Notes: a model not told the origin generated them from the letters alone. Shown: positions 3,336-63,933, counted from the stretch's first letter. The stretch is DNA of 64,000 nt from a virus (IMGVR_UViG_3300008108_000023:1-64000); one strand, 5' to 3'. Program-made: numbers and translations.

Positions 3336-3983
3336 TTAATCTAATGAATTTGGTAAATAAAGTAGTGTGGGGTTTTTCTTTTGAATATCTAATTCAGGGT
3401 ATCTCTCCTTAAACTTCATCACATCAAATTTTTTGGTAATTAAGTGGTGTCCGTTCTTTGTTGGGATTACAGCCTCAACCTTTGGTCCCACCTTGTAACC
3501 AATTGGAACACCGGCTTCATCAAATTCAACTTCAGTAAATGGTTTACATTCATATTCAATAAATGCAACCATCATTGGACTCATCTCTTTTACATCATCA
3601 ACATCCACTATCCAACGTTTCTCCTGTGTCTTTAACTGACCAACAACGCTATCAAATAATCCTTTCTGATTATGTTGTCCATTCTGAATACGTTGAGCGA
3701 GGTCAACCATCATATTCAATGAAACATCAAAGTGATTTTGTTTTTGAACGTGGATGTATGCCCTCGCCTTAAACATCTCACACAGTTGTTTAATCTCATC
3801 GTACCTACGTTCAAGATGTTCGATACTTTCAATACAGTAAGTCTTAATTGTTCTCACCGATTGGTGATTATCTCTCTCCCCTTCGGGTTGGTCTTTCTTT
3901 CGTTTGAAAATGTAGAGCATATAGAAGTCACCCTCGTTTTCGAAGTTGAGTAATGACTTAACTAATTCTATATTATCTATCAT
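3336..3983 (-). CDS. hypothetical protein
   Basis: 215-aa ORF; start 1 nt after the stop of the downstream gene. Confidence 0.55.
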   Translation of the reverse strand: MIDNIELVKSLLNFENEGDFYMLYIFKRKKDQPEGERDNHQSVRTIKTYCIESIEHLERRYDEIKQLCEMFKARAYIHVQKQNHFDVSLNMMVDLAQRIQNGQHNQKGLFDSVVGQLKTQEKRWIVDVDDVKEMSPMMVAFIEYECKPFTEVEFDEAGVPIGYKVGPKVEAVIPTKNGHHLITKKFDVMKFKERYPELDIQKKNPTLLYLPNSLD

Positions 3984-4621: not shown

Positions 4622-4888
4622 TCAATTTGTTCCTTCCTCTTTCCTTGGTTGTCCATTGTATGTAGTTTTAGGTGTTTCAATCTCCCAATACCCCACGATG
4701 AAGTATTGATTACGACCAACAGGAGAAACTTCATACTTTTTTCCACGAGCAATGGATGCATTAGTCACAACACAGTCCATTTGTTTGTATAAAACCCGTT
4801 GACCTATATAAAATGTGTTCATAGATACATAAAGATTAAAAATCCAAATCCTATACCTGCTAAGAAGTACACCAAGTTGTTCAACCAA
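4622..4888 (-). CDS. hypothetical protein
   Basis: 88-aa ORF. The competing overlapping ORF 4543..4761 more likely contains only a short C-terminal TM peptide. Confidence 0.4.
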   Translation of the reverse strand: MVEQLGVLLSRYRIWIFNLYVSMNTFYIGQRVLYKQMDCVVTNASIARGKKYEVSPVGRNQYFIVGYWEIETPKTTYNGQPRKEEGTN

Positions 4889-5325
4889 AAGGGATATCTT
4901 TCCATAATCACATTTTTCTTCAAATATAAAAATTTTTTTGTGAAATCCAAAAAAATCACAAAAAAAAACACCCTAATTTATCCAACTTTCAGGTGTTATG
5001 GTTGTCCCCGTTGCCGGGTTAGGAATAGACTTACAGGGGCACGTTGTTCTTTATCACCCTTTTGGTATTCCCCGCGGATAGTCAGTCCGAATAAGACGTT
5101 GTCTTATTATCAGTCCTCTACGGTTATCACACCGTTTCTCATCATGTGAGGCACACTATCCGATGATTAATCGGAACGTTTCTTTAGATATTCTTTTCTT
5201 GTTCTATATTCCCCTACTTTGTAACCAGCGAGAAACCAAAGAGAGAATCCTATGTATACTAAAATAACTGTCATAATTAATTTTGATACAAATATAATGT
5301 ATATTTTTTAATATGCAAAAATATT

Positions 5326-5514
5326 TTAATTTTTTTTGAAGTGTCTTTTACTACCTTCACAAATATTGTCTTTGGAAACGTCCCATATGTTTTTTTGAAC
5401 CATATGACAAGCGTGTGATTTACCCATTCGTTTAGAAAAATGGATGATGGTGTCATTATTATTATTTCTGACAACCCATGGACATTCCTTACAAGGTGAA
5501 CTAGTTTTCTTCAA
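5326..5514 (-). CDS. small Cys/His-rich protein
   Basis: 62-aa ORF with CKECPW...CHM...C residues; preferred over overlapping 5277..5474. Confidence 0.35.
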   Translation of the reverse strand: MKKTSSPCKECPWVVRNNNNDTIIHFSKRMGKSHACHMVQKNIWDVSKDNICEGSKRHFKKN

Positions 5515-17751: not shown

Positions 17752-17809
17752 TTTTTATGATTTACATACAAATATATTACTAGTATTTGAGATATCCAAA
17801 TTTTTTTTC

Positions 17810-23392: not shown

Positions 23393-23906
23393 CTGATGTA
23401 CTCACACGAAGTCCATCGATTATTAAATCATCATATTTTTCGTTGTCCATCCAAAACATTCCGTGGCCTTTCGACCTTTGGTCTCTCCTGTATTCTTCAT
23501 TTACAACCCAACCATCTGGTTGACCCCACTCAAGAGCCATGGTGATAAACTCTTCAACATTCCATTCTTCACCATATTCATCCACAATTCTTCCTGAACG
23601 AATAAATGAAAGTAGTTCTTCTTTATTTGAATAATGTTTATTATTATGAAAATTCCAACAAAACTTCCACCCACCACTTCTTTTACCTAAATGAATTGAT
23701 GTACCATCTCTGAATATGTCCCAAGGGCTAACTATCTCCCAAGATTCTTTAAATGGGTCAATAAAGGGAAATCCACGTTCAATATCACTAGGTGACATTG
23801 TCATCTTTTCTATATCTCTTTGGAGACGTGATTTACGTGACTCCATTTCCTCTGCGGTCGGTATACGATAATAATTTGTACCCATTTTAAAATTAATATG
23901 GGCCAA
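23379..23906 (-). CDS. hypothetical protein
   Basis: 175-aa ORF overlapping the start of the MPP gene. Confidence 0.5.
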   Translation of the reverse strand: MAHINFKMGTNYYRIPTAEEMESRKSRLQRDIEKMTMSPSDIERGFPFIDPFKESWEIVSPWDIFRDGTSIHLGKRSGGWKFCWNFHNNKHYSNKEELLSFIRSGRIVDEYGEEWNVEEFITMALEWGQPDGWVVNEEYRRDQRSKGHGMFWMDNEKYDDLIIDGLRVSTSVDFS

Positions 23907-23942
23907 ATATATGAAATAATTTTGGATATACCAAAATATTGC

Positions 23943-29451: not shown

Positions 29452-29692
29452 GGTTAATACAATTTAAAAGATTTCTTCCGCGATACCGAGTATCTCCGCC
29501 ACAAAAAATAAAATTGCCGCAGTTTCTAAATTGGTAAAAAATAAGAAATAACAAGCCACGATTCTCAAACCTGACTTGGCCAAACTTATATTGAAGTGAG
29601 AATTAGATTTTGATTCTTTTGGTTCCATGATTAAGGGGTTTTACCAACCAAATATAGAAAAGAAAAATTTGATTTCCAAAAAAATCCTAAAA

Positions 29693-35306: not shown

Positions 35307-36632
35307 TTAATTACTTAAGGGTGCTTTAATCGATGGGTGTGATTGATAATTTTCGATTTGAAAATCCTTATTTTCCAAATGAGTTATTAAAGATGAGTCT
35401 TCAGATAATGATTTATAAAATTCATCGGTCTTCATATGTTTTAGTTTGGGTAATTTATAAGGTTCTCTTGTGTATCGTGGTATTTTATATATCTCATAAT
35501 ATTCAGACATACCTCCACCAAATGGTGCTAAGTCTTTCAACGCACTTTTATAACCATTAGGACCCATCGCCTCTTTTAACATACCTTCTCTCTCTTCATG
35601 TGTATACTTTCTACCGATTTGTTCTCTTGCTTGTTCAACATGGTTACTATACAAATGAGTATCACCTAAATTACCAATCAACTCATCAGGTACCATATTT
35701 ACTTCTTTAGCAATAATCTCAAGTAACAAACCGTAAGAAGCAATATTGAATGGTAGACCTAAGAATGTGTCTACTGAGCGTTGATTCCACATTAAAGAGA
35801 TTGCTCGTTTAGGAACTCTTAAACTATCCATGTGAACATCGTGATAATCACTACTTTGATTTAAAGGGTCTTTTGTTGAGTTATAATAATTAATCCTTTC
35901 ATCTAAACTCAACTCTCTCGTATAAACTTGAAATCCATAATGACAAGGTGGAAGAACCATTTGGTCCAGCTCTCCAACATTCCAAGCATTGACCATTAAT
36001 CGTCTTGAGTCTGGATTTGTTTTAAGGTCGTTGATTAGGTTTGTGATTTGGTCTATTGAATTGTTTTGGTATTCTATTTTGACACCATACTTGGTAACAT
36101 CTTCACCGATTTCAATTGCTTTTAGTACTCTGTGTTGGTCAGAACCTTTTACATCCTTTAAGTCGTAATTAGTCACATTCTTTCTACCCCATCTTCTCCA
36201 TTGCTTACCATACACAGGTCCGAGGTCACCCCACTTCTTAGCAAACTCATCATCGGTTTTTATTTTGTTGATGAATTCTTCTTTTGTTAATCGAAATCCT
36301 AACTCTAACATTTTTTCTTTTGACATATTAGGTAAGATTTTGGCATCTTCAATTAGATAGTTCTTATACGCATCACCATCCCAAATATGACAATTGTTAT
36401 CAACAAGGAACTTGATGTTTGTATCACCACGAAGGAACCATAACAATTCGGTTACCATCGTCTTCCACGCCATTTTCTTGGTTGTAAGTAATGGAAACCC
36501 ATCGGACATTTTATGACGGATTGTATAACCAAAAATAGATTTGGTTCCTGTACCTGTACGGTCTTTCTTTTCTACCCCATAATCTATAATAGTTTGGAGT
36601 AAGTCTGTGTATTGTTTATCTAATTTGTTCAT
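35307..36632 (-). CDS. thyA: thymidylate synthase (ThyA-type) with large insertions
   Basis: DRTGTGT, DLGPVYGKQWRRWG, NAWNVGELDQMVLPPCH, QRSVDTFLGLPFNIASY (the substrate-specificity Asn is retained) and DTHLYSNH motifs; 441 aa versus about 265-320 for typical ThyA. Confidence 0.85.
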   Translation of the reverse strand: MNKLDKQYTDLLQTIIDYGVEKKDRTGTGTKSIFGYTIRHKMSDGFPLLTTKKMAWKTMVTELLWFLRGDTNIKFLVDNNCHIWDGDAYKNYLIEDAKILPNMSKEKMLELGFRLTKEEFINKIKTDDEFAKKWGDLGPVYGKQWRRWGRKNVTNYDLKDVKGSDQHRVLKAIEIGEDVTKYGVKIEYQNNSIDQITNLINDLKTNPDSRRLMVNAWNVGELDQMVLPPCHYGFQVYTRELSLDERINYYNSTKDPLNQSSDYHDVHMDSLRVPKRAISLMWNQRSVDTFLGLPFNIASYGLLLEIIAKEVNMVPDELIGNLGDTHLYSNHVEQAREQIGRKYTHEEREGMLKEAMGPNGYKSALKDLAPFGGGMSEYYEIYKIPRYTREPYKLPKLKHMKTDEFYKSLSEDSSLITHLENKDFQIENYQSHPSIKAPLSN

Positions 36633-42126: not shown

Positions 42127-43584
42127 ATGATTACAATAGGTTACAGTACAAGAGAGTCCAACCCAAAATTTCAAGAATATTTAAAAAAAACTTGTGGACA
42201 CCCCAAAGTTCAAGTTATTGAAAAAGTAAACAATGGTGAAAAAAGTCTTTCACAAACTTACAATGAAATTATTCAAGAGTCGATTCATGATATTGTCGTA
42301 CTTTGTCATGATGACATTTACTTTAATACGACTTCGTGGGGTAGAAAATTAGTCAAACATTTTGAAGAATCTGACTACGGGATTCTCGGTGTTGCCGGTA
42401 CAACCAATATTCATGAGAGTGGTAGGTGGTGGACAGATAATACCAAAATGGTTGGTATTGTTAATCATGAAAATGAGGGTAAAAAATGGGAATCGAGATA
42501 TGCAAATGGAATCCCAAATTCAATTCACGAAGTTTGTTTAGTGGATGGTTTATTCATTGGAATCCACAAAAACAGAATAAAACACACTTTTGATGAGTCA
42601 GTACCGGGTTTTCATTTTTATGATATGGTATTCTGTACTAGCAATCACTTAAGTGAGGTAAACATCGGTGTTATATACAACATAAGAATCACTCACAAAT
42701 CAATCGGAATGACCAATGATTCTTGGGAAAAGAATAGGGAATTTTACATTGAAAAATTTAAAGAGAACCTACCAATTAATATAACACCAAAAATTGATTA
42801 TGACATAACCAAACCAAAACAGTTTAAAGATAAATTTAATTTAATAGTTCAAACATCAAACGATAATGAAAATTTAATTCAGTTTTTTGAAAACATAAAA
42901 AAATTACCAGTGTTTGATAGTTTACAGATTTCACTCATCTCGACGGATACCAATATAGACAATATTAGAGAATTTGAATCTGAAAATATTAAAATTTACG
43001 AGGGTTTTTTTGATACATTAAATAAAAACTTATCAGTACTGAAATGGGATGAATCGTTTATGGAATCAAAAACAGATTTGTTATTTTTCAGTAATGATAC
43101 TGTTACCGTATTGAACGACGTTTTCTCAAGTATGTATTCAATATTTAAGAGTGAAAAAAATACTTTTGGGTGCGTCTTTCCTACAGTATTAGAAAACGAC
43201 CGAACAATTTTTTCAAATGGATTGGATATAGTTCAAAACAACGAACAGTTCAATTTAATTTTTAAAAACAAATCATCTTTTTTCAATATTTTACACGGAC
43301 ACTTTCCAAACAATTTTGGTAGTATTAGTGACTTTTTTGCCACTACATCTACAAATTTAAAAATGATTGATTGGTTTGATATTAATTTAGAAACATCAAT
43401 TTATAACTTAGATTTTGCGTTGAAAACTTTACTTAAAAAACGTAAAACATTCATTGACACAAACAGTGTGGTAATGATTGATATGGCATCAAAATTTGAA
43501 AAGGTTGATGTTGAATTAAAACAAGTCTTAGGTCAGTACATAAACTCACCTGAAATTAGAAAAAATATCAAACAATTAAGATGA
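42127..43584 (+). CDS. glycan-operon protein 1 (possible glycosyltransferase)
   Basis: 485-aa first ORF of the plus-strand operon; VLCHDDIYF DxD-like motif; weak. Confidence 0.55.
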   Translation: MITIGYSTRESNPKFQEYLKKTCGHPKVQVIEKVNNGEKSLSQTYNEIIQESIHDIVVLCHDDIYFNTTSWGRKLVKHFEESDYGILGVAGTTNIHESGRWWTDNTKMVGIVNHENEGKKWESRYANGIPNSIHEVCLVDGLFIGIHKNRIKHTFDESVPGFHFYDMVFCTSNHLSEVNIGVIYNIRITHKSIGMTNDSWEKNREFYIEKFKENLPINITPKIDYDITKPKQFKDKFNLIVQTSNDNENLIQFFENIKKLPVFDSLQISLISTDTNIDNIREFESENIKIYEGFFDTLNKNLSVLKWDESFMESKTDLLFFSNDTVTVLNDVFSSMYSIFKSEKNTFGCVFPTVLENDRTIFSNGLDIVQNNEQFNLIFKNKSSFFNILHGHFPNNFGSISDFFATTSTNLKMIDWFDINLETSIYNLDFALKTLLKKRKTFIDTNSVVMIDMASKFEKVDVELKQVLGQYINSPEIRKNIKQLR

Positions 43585-44360
43585 TAAAAATTGTATCGGG
43601 ATTTACAGAAAAAGGTGGTTCTACCACTTTTTTTATAAACTTAACAAATTTCTTAAATGAAAATGGTATTGATTGCACATTTTACGGTAATCAGAATTAC
43701 CATTTAGACAAATGTAAATCAGGGAACATTGAAAAAGATTTAAAGTATGAATCTGATGATATTGTAATTACCCATTTTTTACAACTACAGGAAAGACCAC
43801 CTGTTAAAAAAGTTATTTTGTCTTGTCATGAAAAATGGTGGTTCCCTGTTGGTAAAATTAAACAGTATTGGGACCTGTGCGTGTTTTTACATGAAGAGCA
43901 TCGAAAATATCACTCGGATTACAGGGGTGATTATGTAATAATACCAAACATCAAAGAAAATTTAATTATTTCAAATAAAGAGCTGGTAAGAAATATTGCA
44001 GGAATTATTGGTACAATTGAAGACAGAAAACAGACCCATGTGTCAATACAAAGAGCATTAAAAGACAGGTGTGAAAAAATCTATTTGTTCGGTCACATCG
44101 GTGACCAAAACTATTTTGACAAATTGGTAAAACCTTTAATGAATCCAAGAGTAATTCATTACGGTCACACCACCAATAAACAAGAAATGTACGATATGAT
44201 TGGTAAGGTATATCACTCATCAAAGGGTGAGGTTGCTTGTTTGGTTAAAGATGAATGTTATTTAACCGGTACAGAGTTTTATGGTAATGAAGAGACTATG
44301 AATGAAGTTTCTAAATTAAGTAACGAAGAGATATTAACACTTTGGAAAAACATATTTTAA
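43581..44360 (+). CDS. glycan-operon protein 2
   Basis: 259-aa ORF, ATGA overlap with upstream gene. Confidence 0.5.
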   Translation: MIKIVSGFTEKGGSTTFFINLTNFLNENGIDCTFYGNQNYHLDKCKSGNIEKDLKYESDDIVITHFLQLQERPPVKKVILSCHEKWWFPVGKIKQYWDLCVFLHEEHRKYHSDYRGDYVIIPNIKENLIISNKELVRNIAGIIGTIEDRKQTHVSIQRALKDRCEKIYLFGHIGDQNYFDKLVKPLMNPRVIHYGHTTNKQEMYDMIGKVYHSSKGEVACLVKDECYLTGTEFYGNEETMNEVSKLSNEEILTLWKNIF

Positions 44361-44361
44361 A

Positions 44362-45084
44362 ATGAAGATACACGCACATATACTGTCATGGAATGAAGAA
44401 AAAATATTACCATTCACATTGGATTACTATAGTACAATCTGTGAAAAAATATTCATATACGATAATATGTCAACGGACTCCTCTGATGAGATTTATAAGA
44501 GGTACCCAAAAGTTGAGGTTATTAAATGGGATAGTGGTAATGAAATAAATGAAATTAATTACGTAAACATTAAATCCGAAGAGTATAAAAAAAGAAGTAG
44601 AGGTCAGGGTGTTGATTGGGTTATAGTTTGTGACTGTGATGAGTTTATATACCATGAAAATCTTATGGATAAACTTCAAGAGTACAAAGAAATGGGTATA
44701 ACCGTCCCAAGAATAGACGGTCACGACATGGTTAGTACTGAATTTCCAATATACGACGGTGAATTCATTACAACAAAAATTAAAACAGGTTCACAAACGT
44801 ATGAACCAATGTGTAAAAATATAATTTTTCATCCTGATTTAGATATAAAATACGGCATTGGTGGTCACAGTTTTAATTCTGTTGATGGTAAATTTTCGGA
44901 TGAGCGGGAAATAAAACTTCTTCACTATAAATTCTTGGGTAAAGACTACGTGAAGAACATTTACATTTCAAGAGCAAAGAGATTGTCATCGTTCAATAAA
45001 CAACATAAATTCGGTGAACATTATTTTAATTTACCATTCAATTACATGGACAGCATGTTAAAAGAAAATTATCAAGTTATATGA
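44362..45084 (+). CDS. glycosyltransferase-like (GT-A, DxD)
   Basis: ILSWNEEKILPF...IYDNMSTD...VCDCDEFIYHE resembles Glyco_tranf_2_4-type GT-A proteins. Confidence 0.55.
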   Translation: MKIHAHILSWNEEKILPFTLDYYSTICEKIFIYDNMSTDSSDEIYKRYPKVEVIKWDSGNEINEINYVNIKSEEYKKRSRGQGVDWVIVCDCDEFIYHENLMDKLQEYKEMGITVPRIDGHDMVSTEFPIYDGEFITTKIKTGSQTYEPMCKNIIFHPDLDIKYGIGGHSFNSVDGKFSDEREIKLLHYKFLGKDYVKNIYISRAKRLSSFNKQHKFGEHYFNLPFNYMDSMLKENYQVI

Positions 45085-45902
45085 GGAAAATACTTATATC
45101 GGATTTTACCATTAAAGAAGTACCTCACGGTGGTTCTGAATGGGTGAATCAAGTTTTAATTGATAGATTTAATCTTGAGTTTGAATATTCAAACCAAGTC
45201 AAGTCATTTGATTACAACGCCCTGTATATTATATCAAATATTTCTTTGATGAACCCAAACTTGGTTAATCAAATACAAAATTTGAACTACGTCATTATTG
45301 AAAACGATTATAAAATATGTGCAAGTAGACACCCATGGAGATATACCGACAACATAATTCCGATTGAGGAAAGAACCAACTATTCTCTTTACCGGAATGC
45401 AAAAGCGGTATTTGTTCAAACAACCGACCACATGAACGTTTATCTTAAAAACGATGTTGTTGCTAATTTTATAAATCTGAATAGTTCGATATGGTCAAAT
45501 GAGGACTTAGAATTATTGAGGAATTTAAATAAATCCAACAATGTTAAAAACGACAAATATTCTGTTTACTATACAAATAATTGGATAAAGAACACCCAAG
45601 GTAGTCTGAAGTATTGTTCTGAAAATAAATTACCGGTCCATATTCTTAAAGAATCTAAAGACAGAGTTGAATTTTTAAGTAATATGGCCAAATGTAAAGG
45701 TATTGTGTTTTTCCCGATAGCAAGAGAAACTTTTTGTAGACTGGTTGTTGAGGCAAAATGTTTAGGTTTGGAAGTAATAACGACACAAAATTATGGTGCA
45801 AGTTTAGAAGAATGGTTTAATAGGTTATCAGGTGATGAATTAATTGATTTCTTAGAAACTAACACTTTAAAAAATTTAGAAATCATTTCAACTTATATAT
45901 GA
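45081..45902 (+). CDS. glycan-operon protein 4
   Basis: 273-aa ORF, ATGA overlap at both ends. Confidence 0.5.
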   Translation: MRKILISDFTIKEVPHGGSEWVNQVLIDRFNLEFEYSNQVKSFDYNALYIISNISLMNPNLVNQIQNLNYVIIENDYKICASRHPWRYTDNIIPIEERTNYSLYRNAKAVFVQTTDHMNVYLKNDVVANFINLNSSIWSNEDLELLRNLNKSNNVKNDKYSVYYTNNWIKNTQGSLKYCSENKLPVHILKESKDRVEFLSNMAKCKGIVFFPIARETFCRLVVEAKCLGLEVITTQNYGASLEEWFNRLSGDELIDFLETNTLKNLEIISTYI

Positions 45903-46891
45903 TATTATTTTGTTACGGCACAAGACCTGAGTATATTAAAATAAAAAAATTAATAGAAATGTGTGGGGAAAGTATTCCCCATAAAATTTTATATGTTACC
46001 CAACACAAAGATATTGTATTGGGTGATTTTGATTATAAATTATCCATTGATGATACGTGTGAAAATAGATTGGATAGTATTATGTCATCCGTATTTTTAA
46101 ATTTTAAAAAAGAATTTTTGGAAGGGGTTACACATATACTTATCCAAGGGGACACCGCAACCGCTCTTTCATTATCCCTAATAGGATTACACCATAAAAA
46201 AGAAGTGATTCATTTAGAAGCGGGATTACGGACATATGACTACAATCACCCTTACCCCGAAGAAATGTATCGGCAGTTAATTAGTAGAATTTCAAACTAT
46301 AATCTTTGCCCAACAGAAAGTAACAAGATGAACTTAGAAAATGAAAAAGTTCAGGGTAAAAATTTTGTAGTTGGCAATACCGTATTAGATAATCTTAATA
46401 AAGAAAATATTACATACGAAAATAAAGTCTTAATCACTTTACATAGAAGAGAGAATCATGAGATGATGTCGGAGTGGTTTGATGTTATCAATCGATTAGC
46501 AAAGAATAATCCTGAATTAAAATTCATTCTTCCAATACACCCAAACCCAAACGTCATAAAACACAAACATATATTGACACATGTTGATGTTATTGAACCA
46601 TTAACCCATGATAAATTTATTGAGGAATTCAAATCCTGTAAATTACTAATTTCAGATAGTGGGGGTGTTCAAGAAGAGGCGTCGTTCCTAAATAAGAAAG
46701 TTATTGTATGTAGAGAAAAAACTGAGAGACCTGAGTCCTTGGGTAAAACGTCTTTTATATGTAAAAAACCCATTGACTTAGAAGGTATTTTTTACGATAT
46801 TATTAACGATTTCCAAACAGAATATGATTGTCCTTTTGGTGATGGTAATTCTTGTGAAAGAATCATTGAAATATTTAGAAAAATTGTATGA
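45899..46891 (+). CDS. UDP-N-acetylglucosamine 2-epimerase (WecB/NeuC family)
   Basis: FCYGTRPEYIKI, HLEAGLRTYD, DSGGVQEEA, ERPE and FGDGNSCERI motifs collinear with E. coli WecB. Confidence 0.85.
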   Translation: MILFCYGTRPEYIKIKKLIEMCGESIPHKILYVTQHKDIVLGDFDYKLSIDDTCENRLDSIMSSVFLNFKKEFLEGVTHILIQGDTATALSLSLIGLHHKKEVIHLEAGLRTYDYNHPYPEEMYRQLISRISNYNLCPTESNKMNLENEKVQGKNFVVGNTVLDNLNKENITYENKVLITLHRRENHEMMSEWFDVINRLAKNNPELKFILPIHPNPNVIKHKHILTHVDVIEPLTHDKFIEEFKSCKLLISDSGGVQEEASFLNKKVIVCREKTERPESLGKTSFICKKPIDLEGIFYDIINDFQTEYDCPFGDGNSCERIIEIFRKIV

Positions 46892-47616
46892 GTATAACGG
46901 TAATATTAAATGGGTATAAAAGACCACATGTTCTCCAAAAACAATTGGAATCAATTAGAAATCAAAGTGTCCAACCCGAATCAATTTTATTTTGGCAAAA
47001 TTCTGGTTCTCAATTTGATGAGGGACTAACCAAAGATTTAATTCACGCATCTTGTAATAGTAATTTAGGTGTGTGGGCAAGATTTGCATTTGCTTTAAAT
47101 GCCAACACAGAATATATTTGTGTTTTTGATGATGACACAATACCGGGTAAACTATGGTTAGAAAACTGTCTAAACACCATGAAAATTCAAGAAGGTTTAT
47201 TAGGAACTATCGGTGTAAAATTTCACACAAAAAACTCTTATTGGCCAGCAACAAGAGTCGGTTGGGACCAACCTAACGAAGAAATTGAAAAGGTCGACAT
47301 TGTTGGTCACTCGTGGTTCTTTAAAAGAGAATGGTTATCGATATTTTGGAGAGAATTACCTGAAATCAATCAGAGTAAATTAGTTGGTGAGGATATGCAC
47401 TTTTCATATACATTACAGAAATACGCAAATATCGGAACTTACGTTCCTCCCCATCCTAAAGAAAATAGAGAAATGTGGGGTAGTATACCAGAATATGCAT
47501 GGGAACATGGAACTGATTCCAACGCAATTTCCGTAAATCATTCAAATATGAATTTAATGGGTGAAGTTTACCGTGGGTATGTAAATAAAGGATTTAAGAC
47601 AATATTAAATGATTGA
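46888..47616 (+). CDS. glycosyltransferase-like (DxD)
   Basis: ITVILNGYKRP...IRNQS and FDDDTIPG motifs. Confidence 0.55.
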   Translation: MSITVILNGYKRPHVLQKQLESIRNQSVQPESILFWQNSGSQFDEGLTKDLIHASCNSNLGVWARFAFALNANTEYICVFDDDTIPGKLWLENCLNTMKIQEGLLGTIGVKFHTKNSYWPATRVGWDQPNEEIEKVDIVGHSWFFKREWLSIFWRELPEINQSKLVGEDMHFSYTLQKYANIGTYVPPHPKENREMWGSIPEYAWEHGTDSNAISVNHSNMNLMGEVYRGYVNKGFKTILND

Positions 47617-48328
47617 AAAGTATATTGAAGATTTTAATTCGTTTTGGGAAAAGATAGATAGTCGAACTAACTTTTCTTTTGTTAGATATGCCGATGGTGA
47701 AGTGATGTTAATGAATAATTCACCGATAGAAAAGAATACACAAGCGTATCAAAACGATAAATGGTTTTCGAGTGGGGGACAAACCAAATTAGGTGTGGAT
47801 TTAAATGAATGTATAGGGTTGAACGACCCAAATTTTTATTTTGCAATATCCTCCAAAACTGATAGTATTAGAGACTATAATTTTTTATATGATAGAATAC
47901 AAAATAAATCAAACATTACATTTGCTAACCTATGGATTAACGCAAATTACAAAGAAAATATATCAAGAATAAGAAATATAAATCGAGATGTTGTTTTAAT
48001 TTGTAATGAAAATTGTGATTTAAAAAACATACCATTTAGTGTATCAGAATTTGTACCGTTCCCTAATGATTGTGTAAACTATTGGGAAGAACATAGAGAT
48101 TCGTTTTTAGAAAAAATATACAATGTTTCTTCAAAATATAAAGATACTTTATTTATCGTATGTTGTGGACCAACATCTGCTGTTATCATAAAACATATGT
48201 TTACAAATAATAGTAATAACACTTATATTGATTTTGGTTCCGCATTAGATGTATTCATACATAATAAAATAACTAGACCATACATGTATGAAGGGTCACA
48301 ATATCATAATCACATATCAAAATTTTAA
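47609..48328 (+). CDS. glycan-operon protein 7
   Basis: 239-aa ORF. Confidence 0.5.
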   Translation: MIEKYIEDFNSFWEKIDSRTNFSFVRYADGEVMLMNNSPIEKNTQAYQNDKWFSSGGQTKLGVDLNECIGLNDPNFYFAISSKTDSIRDYNFLYDRIQNKSNITFANLWINANYKENISRIRNINRDVVLICNENCDLKNIPFSVSEFVPFPNDCVNYWEEHRDSFLEKIYNVSSKYKDTLFIVCCGPTSAVIIKHMFTNNSNNTYIDFGSALDVFIHNKITRPYMYEGSQYHNHISKF

Positions 48329-48334
48329 TTCAGT

Positions 48335-48925
48335 ATGAATAATGATTTTTGTGTCATAGTACAAGGACCTTCAGACTACGTTAAAGAATTAAAAAACGCT
48401 TGGACTGGTTATGATTTGATTTGGTCAACATGGCAAGGTGAAGAATCAAAATACGATACTAATGATGTTGTCTTATTCAACAGTATTCCACACGATAGGG
48501 GTGTACAAAATATAGCACTACAAAAAATATCAACTTTGAATGGAATAATGAAAGCCAAAGAAATAGGTTACAACAGAGTCCTTAAATGGAGAAGTGATTT
48601 ACTACCATCTAATGCAAATAGATTAGTTTCCACATTTAAAAAAGAGTGTGTAAATTTTTTGACTTGGCATAATGAAGGAAAATATTTTGTTGATTATTTT
48701 GTGGAGGGTGAAATAGATACGGTGTTTGATATTTGGAATGTATCTACCATACACGATGAGTATTCGGAAAAAATAATCACGGAAAATATAATATCACTTA
48801 ACTATAAAAATATAAACTTTATGGGTGGCGAATTAAGTAATGATAATGAAATTTTTTGGTTAAAACGAAATATTAATTTGTCCACATATAAAGACGCACC
48901 ATGTTATAGTATGGTGGTGATTTAA
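48335..48925 (+). CDS. glycan-operon protein 8
   Basis: 196-aa ORF. Confidence 0.5.
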   Translation: MNNDFCVIVQGPSDYVKELKNAWTGYDLIWSTWQGEESKYDTNDVVLFNSIPHDRGVQNIALQKISTLNGIMKAKEIGYNRVLKWRSDLLPSNANRLVSTFKKECVNFLTWHNEGKYFVDYFVEGEIDTVFDIWNVSTIHDEYSEKIITENIISLNYKNINFMGGELSNDNEIFWLKRNINLSTYKDAPCYSMVVI

Positions 48926-48936
48926 AAATTATAAAA

Positions 48937-49671
48937 ATGATAGATAATTCAAAATTTATTGACGACGCATTTACTCAAGATGAATTAAATAGGGGTGCCT
49001 TTACCGATTTGAATGGTAGATGTCCATTATGGACAACAAAAATGATTAATGTTATAAAAGATAAAATTGACTTTAATGATGTCAACACAATATTAGATAT
49101 TGGGTCAAGAGATGGTTGCCAAAGTTTAGAGTTAAATAGATGGTTTCCACATGCTAAAATATATGCGTTTGAACCAGTAAAAGAAAACTACGAATTTACA
49201 GTTAAGAACGTTGAGAAAATTAATAACATAAAAGTTTACCAATACGCAATAAACAATTACAACGGTAAAACTAAATTTTACGAAGTTTATAATGGAAATG
49301 TGGGTGCCAGTTCTTTATTACAGACAACAAACCACTGGCGTTCATCTCAGTGGGCCCAAAAGGAAACTGAGGTTGACTGTATTGTTCTTAGTGATTGGTT
49401 AAAAGAAAATGATATTAAAAGTGTTGATTTGATTTGGATGGATGTTCAAGGTGCAGAAAATATCGTATTAGACTCTCTAAAAGAATATTTAAATGATGTA
49501 AAAATAATAACCACCGAAGTAGGGTTACAGGAATTATATCGTGGTTCTACAAGTAAATCTGAACTAGATGAAAAACTAAATAGGTTTATACCAATAGACG
49601 AGTCGCCAGAATCTTCAAACACAGAAATGGATGTGGTTTATATCAACAAAAATTTAACACCTTATGGATAA
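48937..49671 (+). CDS. FkbM-family SAM-dependent methyltransferase
   Basis: LDIGSRDGCQSLEL...IYAFEPVKENYEF...NGNVGASSL matches the FkbM domain. Confidence 0.7.
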   Translation: MIDNSKFIDDAFTQDELNRGAFTDLNGRCPLWTTKMINVIKDKIDFNDVNTILDIGSRDGCQSLELNRWFPHAKIYAFEPVKENYEFTVKNVEKINNIKVYQYAINNYNGKTKFYEVYNGNVGASSLLQTTNHWRSSQWAQKETEVDCIVLSDWLKENDIKSVDLIWMDVQGAENIVLDSLKEYLNDVKIITTEVGLQELYRGSTSKSELDEKLNRFIPIDESPESSNTEMDVVYINKNLTPYG

Positions 49672-50365
49672 TAAAATTTGTTACGTTACTTATACAAATT
49701 CAAAATGTTCAGATATTTTGGATATGTTCTTGTTAGAACAAAAAAAGTACACAAACTTACCGATGTATTTTATTACAGATGTAATGATACCCGAGCAAAT
49801 TTGTTTTTTATATGAAAATCAAGAACCTTATTATGAATCATGGTTAAAGTGTTTATCTTCAATACCATATGACTATTTTATATACTTACAAGAAGACTTT
49901 ATTCTTTATAACAATGTCAGTCATGATAAAATTTTTAATTACCTCGATTTTTTACATGATAACCAAGAATATTCGTTCATTAGATTGTTAAAATCGGGGT
50001 CTGTTAAAGATAAAAAAATTTATGAGACCTTATATGAAATAGAATCCGACAATAAAGATATATTTTCTATGCAACCAACTATTTGGAAAAAAGATGATTA
50101 CATTAAAATCATGAAAGGTACCAAAAATAATATGTGGTTAGAGAATGAAACATATAGAAATTTTATGATAGAAAACAACATCAAAGGTTTATATCATTAC
50201 GATGGTGAAAACAAAAGGGGGTTGAATCATTTTGATAGTTCTGTTTATCCATATATAGCAACGGCTTTAGTTAGAGGTAAATGGAATTTATCTGAATACC
50301 CTAATGAACTCTCTCCATTAATAAATGAATATGAAATAAACGTAAATGTTCGGGGGATACATTAA
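49664..50365 (+). CDS. glycan-operon protein 10
   Basis: 233-aa ORF. Confidence 0.5.
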   Translation: MDNKICYVTYTNSKCSDILDMFLLEQKKYTNLPMYFITDVMIPEQICFLYENQEPYYESWLKCLSSIPYDYFIYLQEDFILYNNVSHDKIFNYLDFLHDNQEYSFIRLLKSGSVKDKKIYETLYEIESDNKDIFSMQPTIWKKDDYIKIMKGTKNNMWLENETYRNFMIENNIKGLYHYDGENKRGLNHFDSSVYPYIATALVRGKWNLSEYPNELSPLINEYEINVNVRGIH

Positions 50366-50367
50366 TA

Positions 50368-51042
50368 ATGAAAATTGTTCTATCTTTTTACACCAACAAT
50401 AAATTTAGTAACACCGTTCAAAAATTAATCGGATATTATAATTCACGTGGTTTCAATGATATCCGAGGATTTAAATCTGAAGATGTTAAGAAAGGTATTT
50501 TTTATGAAAACCATAAAGAAATATTAGATTGTGAAACGGGTGATGGATTTTGGTTGTGGAAACCAAAAATTATTTTAGATATTTTGAATGAATTAGAAGA
50601 TGGGGATGCATTAATTTATACCGATGCCGGTGATTTAGTTGATGTTGATTATAATACGATTGCAAATTATTTGAAAGATAATGATTATTATTTTACAAAT
50701 TGGAATGGAAATCGTTGGCCTCAAAAAATATGTACAAAAAGAGACTGTTTTATCTTGATGGATTGTGATGAAGAAAAGTTTCATGAAACACCACAGATGG
50801 AAGCAGGATTTATCATCATTAAAAAAACCAAACAAATGATGGAATTTGTTCACGATTATTTTAAGTATTGTAGTATTAAACAGATAGTTGACAATGAACC
50901 AAATCAAATTGGTGAGAATTTTCCAAATTGGCAATTCCATAGAAATGACCAAAGTATATTAACTAACTTGGTTGTGAAACATAATTTAAAATTTGATTAT
51001 TGTCTCGATTATAGAATAAAATACAACGTATATATACCATGA
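50368..51042 (+). CDS. glycan-operon protein 11 (possible glycosyltransferase)
   Basis: 224-aa ORF; DGFWLWKP and YTDAGD motifs; weak. Confidence 0.5.
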   Translation: MKIVLSFYTNNKFSNTVQKLIGYYNSRGFNDIRGFKSEDVKKGIFYENHKEILDCETGDGFWLWKPKIILDILNELEDGDALIYTDAGDLVDVDYNTIANYLKDNDYYFTNWNGNRWPQKICTKRDCFILMDCDEEKFHETPQMEAGFIIIKKTKQMMEFVHDYFKYCSIKQIVDNEPNQIGENFPNWQFHRNDQSILTNLVVKHNLKFDYCLDYRIKYNVYIP

Positions 51043-51800
51043 AATTTATTGCATTAAATTATAATTATGACTTAAATAAAATGTCCCAAATCGGTCGGAA
51101 ATGGGCGTTTGATGTCTACAAAAATAAAGAGTTTATATCTGATTATTCATCAGCATCTTATGCTTCATTTATTGATAAGAATAGAAAAAGTATTTTACAT
51201 CTTTATACTGATGATGTTGAGGGTATGAAAGAAAAAATGAACAAGTATAACATTGACCAAGACAGAATTATTTATATTGATTACACGGAACAACTTACCA
51301 AATACAATGAAAGTCTTAATTATAGTTTTACAGTTTTAAATGATTTTATTAATTATGCAAAATCAGAAACTGAGTACACTGTAAAAATCGATAATGATTT
51401 ATTTTTTCATTCGGAATTACCACAAATTGATGATAATTCTATTATGGTTTGGAAGTATGAAAGAATCGTTAGGAATGGTGACCCGAGATGGGGTGAAATA
51501 AAAATATGTAAACAGGTTACAAATGATTTAGATTTTAAAATTTATAATTTAGGTATTTTTGGGTTGCCCGCGGATTACAATATTCACCAAGCAAAAAAAA
51601 TTATGGAAGATATGATATCGGTAGACATTTCAGATGTGACTGATACAGACTCGAAGATTTATCATTGTTGTGAGCAAACGGCAAATAATTGGATTTTTCA
51701 CAAAGAAAATTATAACGTGATTGAAACGTATAATTATGTTGACCACCTGTTTGATAGAAAAGGTGATTGTATAGAATTATCAAAATATCTTTTAAAATGA
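51039..51800 (+). CDS. glycan-operon protein 12
   Basis: 253-aa ORF. Confidence 0.5.
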   Translation: MKFIALNYNYDLNKMSQIGRKWAFDVYKNKEFISDYSSASYASFIDKNRKSILHLYTDDVEGMKEKMNKYNIDQDRIIYIDYTEQLTKYNESLNYSFTVLNDFINYAKSETEYTVKIDNDLFFHSELPQIDDNSIMVWKYERIVRNGDPRWGEIKICKQVTNDLDFKIYNLGIFGLPADYNIHQAKKIMEDMISVDISDVTDTDSKIYHCCEQTANNWIFHKENYNVIETYNYVDHLFDRKGDCIELSKYLLK

Positions 51801-52564
51801 AAACATCAGTAGTATTGACAATTCACAACAAGGAATTCTTAATGAACCAAGTGGTGAGTAACTTGGTAAATAATTTATCAGAACTGAATGACCAGATTGT
51901 AATAGTTTTTGATGGTTGTACAGATAATAGTGAAGGTATTGTTCGTGACAATTTAAAGAGAGTTAGTAATAAAAAAATTGATTACCTGTATGCCGACAAT
52001 GTTTTTGAAACCAAAGCAAATAATATTGGTCTAAAGTCTGTTATAAATGATTATGTGGTCTTAATCCAAGATGATATGGTTGTCACAGAAAAAGATTTTG
52101 ATAAGAGGATGTTGGAACCGTTCATAAAATATAGTGATGTGTTCGCTGTAACATCTTTTGTTGCTCACAATAACATCTATAATGAACAAACAAAACAAAT
52201 AAATTACATCGATATTGCACATAAAGATAACTCATCAAGAGATATTTTTTATGCTAGAGAATATGGTAACAGAGGTCCACTAATGTACAACTATAATGAC
52301 GTGGTCAAATTAAATTTTTTAGACGAATATTTTTCACCCCAAAATTATGATGATATGGATATGTCCATGAGAGCATTCAAAGAACTCGGAAAAGTGTCAG
52401 GTTTATATACGATAGATTATATTTCCGAACCTGGATGGGGGACCACTAGACAAAAAAATCAATCATTACATAATAATTTAGTTTACGTAAACGCAGCAAA
52501 AATACTTGAAAAACACAGGGATTTATTGTATAATAAAGACAAATATAAAGAGGATAGAGAATGA
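51797..52564 (+). CDS. family-2 glycosyltransferase
   Basis: MKTSVVLTIHNKE... GT2 N-terminus and LIQDDMV DxD; start chosen at the ATGA overlap (51797) rather than ORF-track 51767. Confidence 0.65.
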   Translation: MKTSVVLTIHNKEFLMNQVVSNLVNNLSELNDQIVIVFDGCTDNSEGIVRDNLKRVSNKKIDYLYADNVFETKANNIGLKSVINDYVVLIQDDMVVTEKDFDKRMLEPFIKYSDVFAVTSFVAHNNIYNEQTKQINYIDIAHKDNSSRDIFYAREYGNRGPLMYNYNDVVKLNFLDEYFSPQNYDDMDMSMRAFKELGKVSGLYTIDYISEPGWGTTRQKNQSLHNNLVYVNAAKILEKHRDLLYNKDKYKEDRE

Positions 52565-53178
52565 ATAATATAGAGCTAAAGACATTTATGATTAATCATA
52601 ATGTTAATATCCATGGTGTGATTCACGTTGGTGCACATTTTGGTCAAGAAGATGAAGTTTATAAGGAATTGGGTATTTCAAACAGAATATACTTTGAACC
52701 TCTATCGTCTAATTTTGAGACCTTAAAAGAAAAAATAGATGATGACGCAATTTTAGTTAAACTGGCGTTAGGTAATGAAAAGAGAAAAGTTTCTATGTTT
52801 GTAGAATCCTTTAATAAAGGTATGTCATCCTCAATATTAGAACCGAAATTACATTCTGTTCAATTTCCTCATATCGTTTTTGATTCTGTAGAAGAAGTTG
52901 AAATGGATAGATTGGATGATTTAAATTACGATTTTTCAAAATACAACATGATGAATATCGATGTTCAAGGTTTTGAATTAGAGGTTCTCAAAGGTTCCGT
53001 GAATACATTAATCAACATTGACTACGTTATTGTAGAAATAAACAGAGCCGAATTATATAAAGGTTGTCCACACTTTGATGAAATAAACAATTGGATGACA
53101 CATCATGGGTTTACCTGTGTTGAACAATTTTGGTGGGGTAATAATTTTGGTGAGGGATTTTTTAAAAAAATAAAATGA
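52561..53178 (+). CDS. FkbM-family SAM-dependent methyltransferase
   Basis: IHVGAHFGQEDEVY...IYFEPLSSNFETL...GMSSSI matches the FkbM domain. Confidence 0.65.
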   Translation: MNNIELKTFMINHNVNIHGVIHVGAHFGQEDEVYKELGISNRIYFEPLSSNFETLKEKIDDDAILVKLALGNEKRKVSMFVESFNKGMSSSILEPKLHSVQFPHIVFDSVEEVEMDRLDDLNYDFSKYNMMNIDVQGFELEVLKGSVNTLINIDYVIVEINRAELYKGCPHFDEINNWMTHHGFTCVEQFWWGNNFGEGFFKKIK

Positions 53179-54236
53179 AACGAGTATTAGTATTGGGTGG
53201 TGGCGGATTTATTGGTGGTCACCTAGCAAAAAGATTAAAAAATGAAGGAAACTACGTAAGAGTAGTTGATATAAAAAGACACGAATATTTTGATGAGAAA
53301 GACTTTTGTGACGAATTCTTAATATATGACCTTACGGACCCAAAAAACGTATCATCAGTAATGAGATTAGAAGAATTAAATGGTACGATATTACCGTTTA
53401 ATTATTACAAACAACCATATTCAACTGAGGTCCCATTTGATGAGGTTTATCAATTAGCTGCCGATATGGGTGGTGCTGGTTACATCTTCACTGGTGAAAA
53501 TGACGCGAATGTTATGCACAATTCTGCAATGATAAATTTAAATGTTGTAAATGAATCAGTGAAGACAAAAGTTAAGAAGATTTTTTATTCATCATCGGCA
53601 TGTATGTATCCTGAACACAATCAATTAGACCCTAACAACCCAAATTGTGAAGAATCATCAGCATATCCCGCGAATCCTGATTCAGAATATGGTTGGGAAA
53701 AACTTTTTTCGGAAAGGTTGTACTTGGCTTTTCACAGAAATCACGGTTTGGATGTTCGAATTGCTAGATTTCATAACATATTTGGTCCATATGGTACGTG
53801 GAAAGGTGGTAAAGAAAAAGCACCAGCAGCTATGTGTAGAAAAGTTGCCGAAATGTTAGACGGTGGAGAAATTGAAGTTTGGGGTGATGGTCAACAGACT
53901 CGTTCATTCTTATATGTGGATGAATGTGTTGAAGCGGTTTTAAGACTAATGAGACAAGACTCTTTTTTGGGTCCTGTAAACATTGGTTCTGAAGAGAAAG
54001 TAACAATTAATGATTTGGCTCAAATGGCTATAGATATTTCAGGTAAAGAAATTTATATCAGAAATATTGGTGGGGAAGAATTTAAACAGAAGTATGGATA
54101 TAAATGTCCTGTTGGTGTGAGGGGAAGAAATTCAGACAATAAATTATACCACGAAAAAATAGGTTGGGTTGTTAGTGAACCTCTGTTCTATGGAATGGAA
54201 AAAACCTATAAATGGATTAATAGTTTAGTTAAATAA
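53175..54236 (+). CDS. GDP-mannose 3,5-epimerase-like NAD-dependent epimerase (SDR)
   Basis: GGGGFIGGHL Rossmann motif; SSSACMYPE, RFHNIFGPYGTWKGGKEKAPAAMCRK, WGDGQQTRSF, VDECVEAVLRL, PVNIGSEEKV and GVRGRNSDN blocks closely parallel plant GME (as recalled). Confidence 0.8.
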   Translation: MKRVLVLGGGGFIGGHLAKRLKNEGNYVRVVDIKRHEYFDEKDFCDEFLIYDLTDPKNVSSVMRLEELNGTILPFNYYKQPYSTEVPFDEVYQLAADMGGAGYIFTGENDANVMHNSAMINLNVVNESVKTKVKKIFYSSSACMYPEHNQLDPNNPNCEESSAYPANPDSEYGWEKLFSERLYLAFHRNHGLDVRIARFHNIFGPYGTWKGGKEKAPAAMCRKVAEMLDGGEIEVWGDGQQTRSFLYVDECVEAVLRLMRQDSFLGPVNIGSEEKVTINDLAQMAIDISGKEIYIRNIGGEEFKQKYGYKCPVGVRGRNSDNKLYHEKIGWVVSEPLFYGMEKTYKWINSLVK

Positions 54237-63186: not shown

Positions 63187-63933
63187 CTAATTTTTTTTTT
63201 CTTCCTCAATGGGAAGTTGTTCATCTTGTATTGGTTCCTCAACAATCGGTTCAGGTGTTTCAATTATTTCCTCAACAATCGGTTCAGGTGTAACAATTGG
63301 TTCTTCAATTACTATCGGTTGTTCTTCAACTATTACAGGTTGTTCTTCAACAATTGGTTCTTCAATTACTATCGGTTGTTCTTCAACTATTACAGGTTGT
63401 TCTTCAACAATTGGTTCAGGAGTAATAGTTGTTTCTTCAATTACTATCGGTTGTTCTTCAACAATTGGTTCAGGTGCAATAGTTGGTTCAGGTGTGACAA
63501 TTGGTTCTTCAACTATTACAGGTTGTTCTTCAACAATTGGTTCAGGAGTAATAGTTGTTTCTTTAACAACCACCGGTTCTTCTTTAATTAAATGGTCCTC
63601 AATTAAAAAAACATCTGATGAGTCATTATCCTCTTCTTCCTCAGGAGTTTCAACATCTTTTGGTTGGGGGGTTTTGTTAAGTAATTTTTCTAAAATATCT
63701 AAATCTTCTTGAGAGATTCTAACTCGAGAGACTTCACCAACAATGTCTTTAGCATCTACCACCGGTGTTTCTTCACCAACGGGTTCAGGAGCGTCTTTTA
63801 CCACTGGTTGTTCAACCTCTACAGTATTTTTCTCACTCTGAGTAAACTTAACTAACATATGTAGAAAAGAAAGTGAAATGATTGGTAACATACCTCCAGC
63901 GAAAAACGCTAAAAATCTTTTGTGACCAATCAT
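63187..63933 (-). CDS. C-terminally membrane-anchored acidic tandem-repeat protein (EPIVEEQPVIVE repeats)
   Basis: The C-terminal ~30 aa (start of the listed string, MIGHKRFLAFFAGGMLPIISLSFLHMLVKF) form a hydrophobic anchor; the body is repeats of (T)PEPIVEEQPVIVEE encoded by the 63230-63590 tandem DNA repeats. Confidence 0.55.
   Translation of the reverse strand: MIGHKRFLAFFAGGMLPIISLSFLHMLVKFTQSEKNTVEVEQPVVKDAPEPVGEETPVVDAKDIVGEVSRVRISQEDLDILEKLLNKTPQPKDVETPEEEEDNDSSDVFLIEDHLIKEEPVVVKETTITPEPIVEEQPVIVEEPIVTPEPTIAPEPIVEEQPIVIEETTITPEPIVEEQPVIVEEQPIVIEEPIVEEQPVIVEEQPIVIEEPIVTPEPIVEEIIETPEPIVEEPIQDEQLPIEEEKKN
63230..63590. repeat. in-frame tandem DNA repeats (units of about 57-63 nt: caacaattggttcttcaattactatcggttgttcttcaactattacaggttgttcttcaa)
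   Basis: Near-identical units repeat at least 5 times within ORF 63187..63933. Confidence 0.7.

Follow-up and report, generated by a model that had tools for sequence, protein, structure and literature searches.

A minus-strand gene for a multi-pseudoknotted non-coding RNA of uncultivated phages, its relatives in tRNA arrays and its possible role

The viral stretch IMGVR_UViG_3300008108_000023:1-64000 (64,000 nucleotides, analysed in full and hereafter called the window) carries a GC-rich island at 4960-5170, where the G+C content in 100-nt windows peaks at 0.51 (5000-5099), against 0.15-0.30 on either side and a mean of about 0.32 for the 64 kb. The island as such is confirmed from a preliminary description, which had proposed either a structured RNA, for example a small RNA (sRNA) or a riboswitch-like leader, or a replication origin or pac/cos-type site, and the locus raises the question of what is encoded here and on which strand. 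It is a minus-strand gene, at about 5183..4960, for a compact multi-pseudoknotted non-coding RNA (ncRNA) of about 215 nt, which belongs to a family in uncultivated phages, many of them jumbo phages. The family is apparently undescribed, widespread and usually located inside jumbo-phage tRNA arrays. The best explanation of the whole, to which we give a rough probability of 0.6, is a structured ncRNA that is released together with tRNAs and acts in trans, in its mature form, as a folded molecule.

Fold, strand and coding status of the RNA

Single-sequence folding gives only a modest excess over shuffles (z = -2.4 for the minus strand and -1.6 for the plus strand), and the Rfam check that had been proposed together with it yields no family match. 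By itself the single sequence would be insufficient to settle a structured RNA, and the comparative evidence is regarded as decisive, as the covariation looked for in related phages is strong. The universal part of the family is its 5' domain, which comprises the following elements:

5108..5183, minus strand: universal 5' domain, 76 nt, matched by covariance model R1
5178-5177, minus strand: invariant C5178-G5177
5175-5171 with 5163-5159, minus strand: helix H1, from covariation; its loop contains the stop codon of a 35-amino-acid (35-aa) open reading frame (ORF)
5158-5155, minus strand: invariant UAGU, from conservation
5156-5153 with 5147-5144, minus strand: pseudoknot stem S1, from covariation
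5151-5148 with 5118-5115, minus strand: pseudoknot stem S2, from covariation; this pairing of the S1 hairpin loop makes an H-type pseudoknot
5143-5136, minus strand: invariant single strand GAUGAGAA, from conservation
5135-5131 with 5124-5120, minus strand: helix H2, from covariation, with loop UGAU

Among 63 distinct sequences of this domain, 97.2% of the cells are in standard pairs, compared with 76.5% in shuffles, and compensatory changes occur in 16 of the 18 pairs; none of 500 shuffles reaches the observed values, and slid registers do not come close. In an independent ranking by mutual information, the top pairs are exactly the helices of the 5' domain. These covarying helices contain 72 G-U cells among 1134 (a tally of per-pair counts), which would be A-C mismatches on the opposite strand, and the RNA is therefore read from the minus strand. 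Family covariation and G-U pairs bear out the ncRNA part of the preliminary description, in which the strand had not been identified, while its label of an sRNA or riboswitch-like leader is not upheld, as discussed below.

Downstream of the 5' domain lie a middle region of hairpins and a 3' domain:

5090..5108, minus strand: H3, an 8-bp hairpin AAUAAGAC-AAC-GUCUUAUU
5075..5089, minus strand: H4, stem CGGA / UCCG with the 7-nt loop CUGACUA; the stem covaries
5035..5060, minus strand: H5, an optional module, stem AGGG / CCCU; the conserved loop contains AAAGAACAACGU (5052-5041)
5028..5031, minus strand: AGUC, 3' strand of a long-range pseudoknot, directly 5' of UAUUCC and pairing with GACU of the H4 loop (G5083-U5080)
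4968..5027, minus strand: 3' domain, aligned with 30 relatives
5027-5022, minus strand: UAUUCC, in AGUC-UAUUCCUAAC, part of the 3' domain
5018-5007, minus strand: hairpin Pa with a GCAA tetraloop and compensatory changes; GACAACC comes next
4996-4991 with 4973-4968, minus strand: terminal hairpin Pb with compensatory changes; its 17-nt loop contains GGAUA (4983-4979)
4960..4968, minus strand: run of nine U (U9) directly after Pb, an intrinsic-terminator-like end

The inverted repeat GAATAAGAC-GTT-GTCTTATT described earlier is real and corresponds to H3, which covaries in relatives and is retained there with wholly different sequences (GAUAGGG..CUCUAUC and GAUAUAA..UUAUAUC). Two further repeats from the same description dissolve on comparison: GTCCCC...GGGGCAC is not a helix of the conserved structure, its runs being split between Pa and H5, and CCGCGG is the H4/H5 junction, not a helix. 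In the covarying H4 stem, for example, CGG changes to UGG together with CCG to CCA. The long-range pseudoknot pairs in 98.2% of the cells of 28 sequences versus 77.1% in shuffles, where 0 of 500 reach the score, and all four of its pairs show compensatory changes (GACU/AGUC, GUCA/UGAC, GUUC/GAAC, GACC/GGUC, AACC/GGUU and GACG/CGUC). The H5 stem covaries in five relatives (L113, L133, L155, L119 and L121), while its loop is nearly invariant. For Pa and Pb together, with their compensatory changes, 99% of the cells pair, and the GNRA loops in relatives read GCAA, GAAA, GUGA and GUAA. UAUUCC and GGAUA of the Pb loop are nearly invariant, with one compensatory and two wobble cases, and a pairing between the two is suggested tentatively.

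A kissing interaction between the loops of H1 and H2 is plausible. The pairing AUCA x UGAU is invariant in the main group, with one covarying loop position, and in a divergent copy on contig L128 (6516-6592) the H1 loop reads GUAC instead of AUCA and the H2 loop UUAC instead of UGAU, two changes that jointly fit the kissing. Two other arrangements were rejected, namely base-pairing between the 5' ACGU and the ACGU of the H5 loop, as position 8 varies uncompensated and most members have no H5, and a tRNA-like cloverleaf drawn from the closing stem GGAUAGUG/ACUAUCC of the minimum-free-energy fold, in place of which covariation gives H1 and the S1/S2 pseudoknot.

Full-length relatives measure 182-258 nt, and their universal part is the 5' domain only. 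H5 is missing from many of them, other inserts can substitute for H3-H5, one subgroup stops just past the AGUC strand, without the 3' domain, and the 3' part of a GC-rich subgroup is of another kind. In the window, where the RNA measures about 215 nt, family conservation begins at A5179-C5178-G5177 and the 3' end falls in the U-run 4968-4960.

On its sequence the RNA element is non-coding. For the plus-strand ORF 4799..5149, which stays open over 116 codons, Pfam gives no match at E <= 1, and stops interrupt every frame of both strands in most homologues, with 5 of 35 keeping one stop-free frame on the opposite (plus) strand. The earlier distrust of this ORF was thus well placed.

The family and its tRNA-array context

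Rfam 15 (4227 covariance models) has 0 matches in the whole window at gathering thresholds, only chance-level matches to unrelated families in 4700-5500 at E <= 10, and only the flanking tRNAs in seven relatives (L073, L135, L084, L190, L116, L175 and L201), while its tRNA model RF00005 has no match on the element in the window or in relatives. Neither megablast nor blastn detected a match to the region and its flanks among 50,697 GenBank phage records, blastn with family members as queries matched none of the phage records either, T-even phages included, and the family consensus, searched against these records at E <= 10, returned two chance matches only, in Streptococcus phages. No description of the RNA was found by text searches of the literature.

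In IMG/VR, the neighbouring 215-aa gene (3336-3983, phrog_14949) is represented by 279 relatives with mosaic flanks, on contigs that reach 310 kb, and among these only L073 has the element, in a version 75% identical, at a different place and between two tRNA-like sequences. Two DNA patterns from the alignment of the window with L073 were run against IMG/VR, where GATGAGAA-N70-100-AGAACAACGTG finds 17 true loci and RTAGT-N11-GATGAGAA-N6-TGAT more than 108 loci. Covariance model R1, which represents the 76-nt 5' domain, has one match in the window (5183..5108, minus strand; 89.7 bits, E about 6e-19), and among the matches listed for it are 101 at 67-95 bits and one divergent second copy at 46 bits. 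The family comprises at least about 100 phage loci in IMG/VR, all of them confirmed by R1, on contigs of up to 322 kb, and some contigs have two copies (L196, 1606-1681 and 3350-3426; L128, 7130-7205 and 6516-6592). In 185,579 bacterial and archaeal species genomes the core DNA pattern has 71 matches, which is within a rough chance estimate, and R1 kept one of these, in a metagenome-assembled genome of the Polyangiaceae (27.7 bits, without H1), which is taken as chance. Within the limits of this exact-pattern pre-screen, the family looks phage-specific.

The loci of the relatives are dense, large tRNA arrays, some of them with transfer-messenger RNA (tmRNA). Among the matches listed, 57 of 80 non-redundant copies have the T-arm of a tRNA or of an odd tRNA-like gene at most 34 nt upstream, and 37 of these 57 sit behind the unusual tRNA-like gene, which consists of a 5' part AGUCAGGUGGCGGAAUUGGUAGACGC, a hypervariable insert of 50-110 nt and a 3' part ACAGGUUCGAAUCCUGUCCUGACUA. 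At the element start, the GC-rich group has an encoded CCA, then 1-2 nt, then AACG, while the other groups read ..CUGACUACA-CG, and the sequence upstream of A-CG is free to vary. No constant protein neighbour was found, as the commonest family occurs in 18 of 110 regions.

The unusual tRNA-like genes have a tRNA-Leu-like acceptor and D-arm, a normal T-arm and a 3' acceptor strand, with the insert replacing the anticodon and variable arms. They are located at L135 12886-13006, 13190-13269 and 14630-14750 and at many other loci, for example L083, L093, L163, L168 and L194. Most of them are missed by ARAGORN, and the Rfam tRNA model aligns one with a 59-nt insertion. These genes may encode natural tRNA-scaffolded RNAs.

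GOLLD and ROOL are RNAs of about 600-800 nt, which occur in phage or prophage DNA, often beside tRNA arrays. Like the new RNA they are complex, pseudoknotted and of unknown function, but both are Rfam families, neither of which matches, while the new RNA is of about 200 nt and has an unrelated consensus. The phrase 'tRNA array' occurs in a cryo-EM paper (PMC12286853).

Predicted transcription unit and gene content of the window

The preliminary description placed the island in a gap of about 390 bp (4889-5276). The real gap is smaller, with a true non-coding stretch of about 4906-5166, as three small ORFs had been overlooked. These ORFs and two candidate promoters surround the RNA as follows:

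5289..5319, minus strand: Bacteroidota-type promoter, with the -33 element TTTG at 5319-5316, a 19-nt spacer and the -7 element TATATTTG at 5296-5289 (sequence reading and consensus scan)
5274..5167, minus strand: 35-aa ORF, predicted hydrophobic membrane peptide MTVILVYIGFSLWFLAGYKVGEYRTRKEYLKKRSD (sequence reading)
4921..4951, minus strand: second Bacteroidota-type promoter, with TTTG at 4951-4948, a 19-nt spacer and TATATTTG at 4928-4921
4905..4819, minus strand: 28-aa ORF (sequence reading)
4822..4622, minus strand: 66-aa ORF, with an ATGA overlap with the 28-aa ORF

The consensus sigma-A promoter of Bacteroidota, known from Bacteroides and Flavobacterium, has TTTG at -33 and TAnnTTTG at -7, with about 19 nt between them. 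Both candidate promoters (5319-5289 and 4951-4921) fit it exactly and are conserved in the syntenic contig L160, where the upstream one is near-identical, and together they form a 45-nt direct repeat with 71% identity (repeat family D1). For TTTG-N18-20-TAnnTTTG the window has 8 matches where 3.05 are expected, and 1 of 100 shuffles reaches 8; the six minus-strand sites are 506-537, 4921-4951, 5289-5319, 17769-17800, 23904-23935 and 29649-29680. The promoter at 5319-5289 is predicted to drive the 35-aa ORF and the RNA, while that at 4951-4921 is predicted to serve the 28-aa and 66-aa ORFs. Given these Bacteroidota-type promoters, the host is probably a member of Bacteroidota, in agreement with proteins distantly similar to those of phages of Cellulophaga, Tenacibaculum and Prevotella.

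The 35-aa ORF is kept in L160, with conservative and synonymous changes, and has a weak match to phrog_1874 (E = 0.0028). It shares its last codons and stop codon (5169-5167) with the beginning of the RNA and with the H1 loop. At the other end of the RNA, the 6-bp Pb stem followed by nine U was read directly, as the terminator scan does not list it, the 17-nt loop exceeding the limit of 8. The U-run is kept in the stand-alone relatives L160, L164 and L168 and is absent where a tRNA follows. The A-tracts pointed out in the preliminary description do exist, and on the minus strand they turn out to be the U9 tail (4968-4960) and the second promoter (4951-4921). L160 and the window are near-identical in one stretch before the 35-aa ORF and in another after the U-run, and this comparison, together with the promoter, ORF, RNA and terminator signals, gives the order of the unit as promoter, 35-aa ORF, RNA, Pb with U9 and next promoter.

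In its first 42 kb the window has almost exclusively minus-strand genes, including those flanking the RNA on both sides. ARAGORN and Rfam both find 0 tRNA or tmRNA genes in the window, and the tRNA motifs GGTTCGANTCC and AGTCAGGTGGCG are not above chance there.

Three further features of the window were observed. About 13 back-to-back plus-strand ORFs, the first of which resembles family-2 glycosyltransferases, occupy 42127-54236 amid an otherwise minus-strand region, and both GC skew and AT skew change sign across this block. A 441-aa thymidylate-synthase-like ORF lies at 35307-36632 (minus strand), where the Pfam match of residues 6-344 covers only profile positions 1-227 of 266, indicating large insertions; it may be a modified-base enzyme or one of the dCMP/dUMP hydroxymethylase type. 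The 12-mer AGGTTGTTCTTC occurs three times within 200 bp (63337-63348, 63394-63405 and 63520-63531, plus strand).

Proposed mode of action, rival explanations and significance

In the window, the Bacteroidota-type promoter would start a short transcript comprising the 35-aa ORF and then the RNA, and ending at Pb and U9. In most relatives the RNA would form part of tRNA-operon transcripts, beginning 2-6 nt past the point where a tRNA or tRNA-like gene ends, and could be excised by the enzymes that mature tRNAs. RNase P would cut at the 5' end of the next tRNA, while RNase Z, RNase E or exonucleases would process the upstream tRNA at its 3' end. Once released, the RNA would act in trans by binding a protein or an RNA that serves tRNAs or translation, through its tertiary fold and its invariant unpaired CG, UAGU, GAUGAGAA and UGAU. 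Such loci most likely produce a stable RNA that is set free along with tRNAs and works in trans, while a role as an antisense RNA or cis-regulator is unlikely. Sequences complementary to the conserved H5 loop show no excess in the window, with 18 matches versus 13.7 expected.

Several points weigh against a tRNA-released, trans-acting RNA of this kind. Pairs were counted on alignments that had been fitted to the structure, with the S2 register chosen per sequence, and the alignment for the long-range pseudoknot was curated by hand, both of which bias the counts toward the model. The tRNA link comes from the relatives, as the window has no tRNA gene, and we infer processing and trans action from gene order alone. 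Finally, the modular middle, with the 76-nt 5' domain alone universal, would equally suit a small autonomous ribozyme or aptamer with variable appendages.

This last point leads to the main rival, that the 5' domain is a self-cleaving or processing ribozyme which cuts near its own 5' edge (around A-CG), the rest being accessory. Such a cut would give the upstream tRNA, or in the window the mRNA of the 35-aa ORF, a free 3' end. A pseudoknotted domain of about 76 nt, with about 25 invariant or nearly invariant nucleotides at its junctions, is typical of small ribozymes in size and style, its start always lies a few nucleotides past a tRNA 3' end with variable sequence upstream, and all that lies 3' of it is modular, to the extent that one subgroup has no 3' domain. 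However, none of the known self-cleaving classes in Rfam 15 matches (hammerhead, HDV-like, hatchet, pistol, twister, twister-sister, hairpin, VS and glmS), and the topology is unlike the HDV, pistol and hammerhead folds. A 2',3'-cyclic phosphate left on the tRNA would moreover need repair before charging, and the conserved, covarying 3' domain and long-range pseudoknot argue that the whole RNA is the functional unit. The ribozyme is considered rather improbable.

Named RNA classes were also compared with the element individually. The hammerhead was rejected against its consensus, as GAUGAGAA has no U4 and no GAAA follows H2, and a C/D-box kink-turn was rejected because the 3' strand does not have the required GA. 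The tRNA-like cloverleaf, the C/D-box kink-turn, hammerhead, HDV and pistol ribozymes, RNase P RNA, signal recognition particle RNA, Y RNA, group I introns, the 11-nt tetraloop receptor, the thiamine pyrophosphate (TPP) riboswitch and the T-box leader have no Rfam support and a mismatching topology.

Large multi-pseudoknot RNAs with many invariant unpaired nucleotides are rare and have historically proved to be ribozymes, riboswitches or cores of ribonucleoproteins. It is conceivable, if doubtful, that the family is a new catalytic or tRNA-directed class of RNA, either a ribozyme maturing the 3' ends of phage tRNA arrays or a partner RNA of the flanking hypervariable tRNA-like genes. Either version, if true, would mean that jumbo phages have an RNA-based system of their own for processing or targeting.

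The closest known systems are the stable non-tRNA RNAs of phage T4, rnaD (species 2, 119 nt) and rnaC (species 1, 139 nt), which follow a tRNA at the end of the tRNA cluster and are released with the tRNAs, and whose roles are still unknown (PMC3014915). A position directly 3' of a tRNA in a phage tRNA cluster is seen in 57 of 80 relatives among the matches listed, but not in the window itself, which has no tRNA gene. The new RNA might be viewed as a distant, enlarged relative of rnaD, within an old lineage of stable RNAs travelling with phage tRNA clusters, as rnaD lies after tRNA-Arg and before the tRNA-like rnaC, and relatives show a tRNA or tRNA-like gene, the element and a tRNA-like gene in the same succession. 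In addition, rnaD begins with AAUGAGAAAC, followed by a 5-bp hairpin with a 7-nt loop and ..GGACUGAUGG, where the window has GAUGAGAAAC, H2 and ..GGACUGAUAA. This local likeness (..UGAGAAAC, hairpin, GGACUGAU in rnaD, L273, NC_000866 71053-71171) is not statistically significant, and R1, run with filters off on the T4 tRNA region, scores 8.8 bits (E = 0.55) over model positions 42-65 only, which is at chance level. Moreover, rnaD has none of H1, S1, S2, H4 and the 3' domain, the UGAGAA of T-even phages is AAGAA in 3 of 5 sequences, and the hairpin is invariant there, showing no covariation. By blastn, rnaD is found almost only in enterobacterial phages that are close relatives of T4, while the RNAs of the new family are longer (182-258 nt) and occur much more widely, in uncultivated phages. 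Kinship is thus quite unlikely, and rnaD is counted as an analogue in position and not as a member of the family.

A cis-acting leader, attenuator or riboswitch, in which a ligand or tRNA would decide on termination at Pb and U9, is very unlikely. The RNA does end in a terminator-like hairpin upstream of further minus-strand ORFs, and it bears superficial resemblances to consensus sequences, namely UGAGA near the 5' junction and CACCUGA..UGGAUAA.U..UAGGG in the 3' hairpin, in the same order as in the TPP riboswitch (THI element; CACCUGA..UGGAUAAU..UAGGG among the strings compared), and CGAUGAGAAG at the 5' end and AAUUAGGGUG near the 3' end, in the same order as in the T-box leader. But the RNA has its own predicted terminator, followed by a separate, conserved candidate promoter, and no regulated ORF follows it; most relatives lie between tRNA genes and not before an ORF, the next gene being mostly a tRNA and the hairpin having no U-run. 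No conserved alternative anti-terminator pairing was found, and the Rfam models of TPP (RF00059) and T-box (RF00230) do not match at E <= 10, nor at E <= 1 on five relatives. The helix topology differs from both classes, that around GAUGAGAA being unlike P2-P3 of the TPP riboswitch, and the 3' strand of TPP P5 is absent, GGAUA appearing to pair with UAUUCC instead.

A DNA-level site (origin, pac or cos) or a protein gene in ORF 4799..5149 can practically be dismissed, as the A/T-rich tract beside the GC-rich island and the 116-codon frame are set against strand-specific, RNA-like conservation with G-U covariation, homologues inside tRNA arrays, the stop-broken frames and missing family match described above, a cumulative GC skew without inflection at the element and the lack of iterons, the sole sizeable direct repeat being the duplicated promoter.

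Stable non-tRNA RNAs in phage tRNA clusters have been known since T4, and what is new is the RNA family, which is abundant in uncultivated jumbo phages, tied to tRNA arrays and matched neither in Rfam nor among sequenced phage isolates. For the non-tRNA RNAs of the T4 tRNA cluster, a puzzle for 60 years, it provides a far larger comparative data set, to which the window is a convenient entry point, as the RNA there has its own (predicted) promoter and terminator. The family is a concrete candidate for how big phages manage their own translation-related RNAs.

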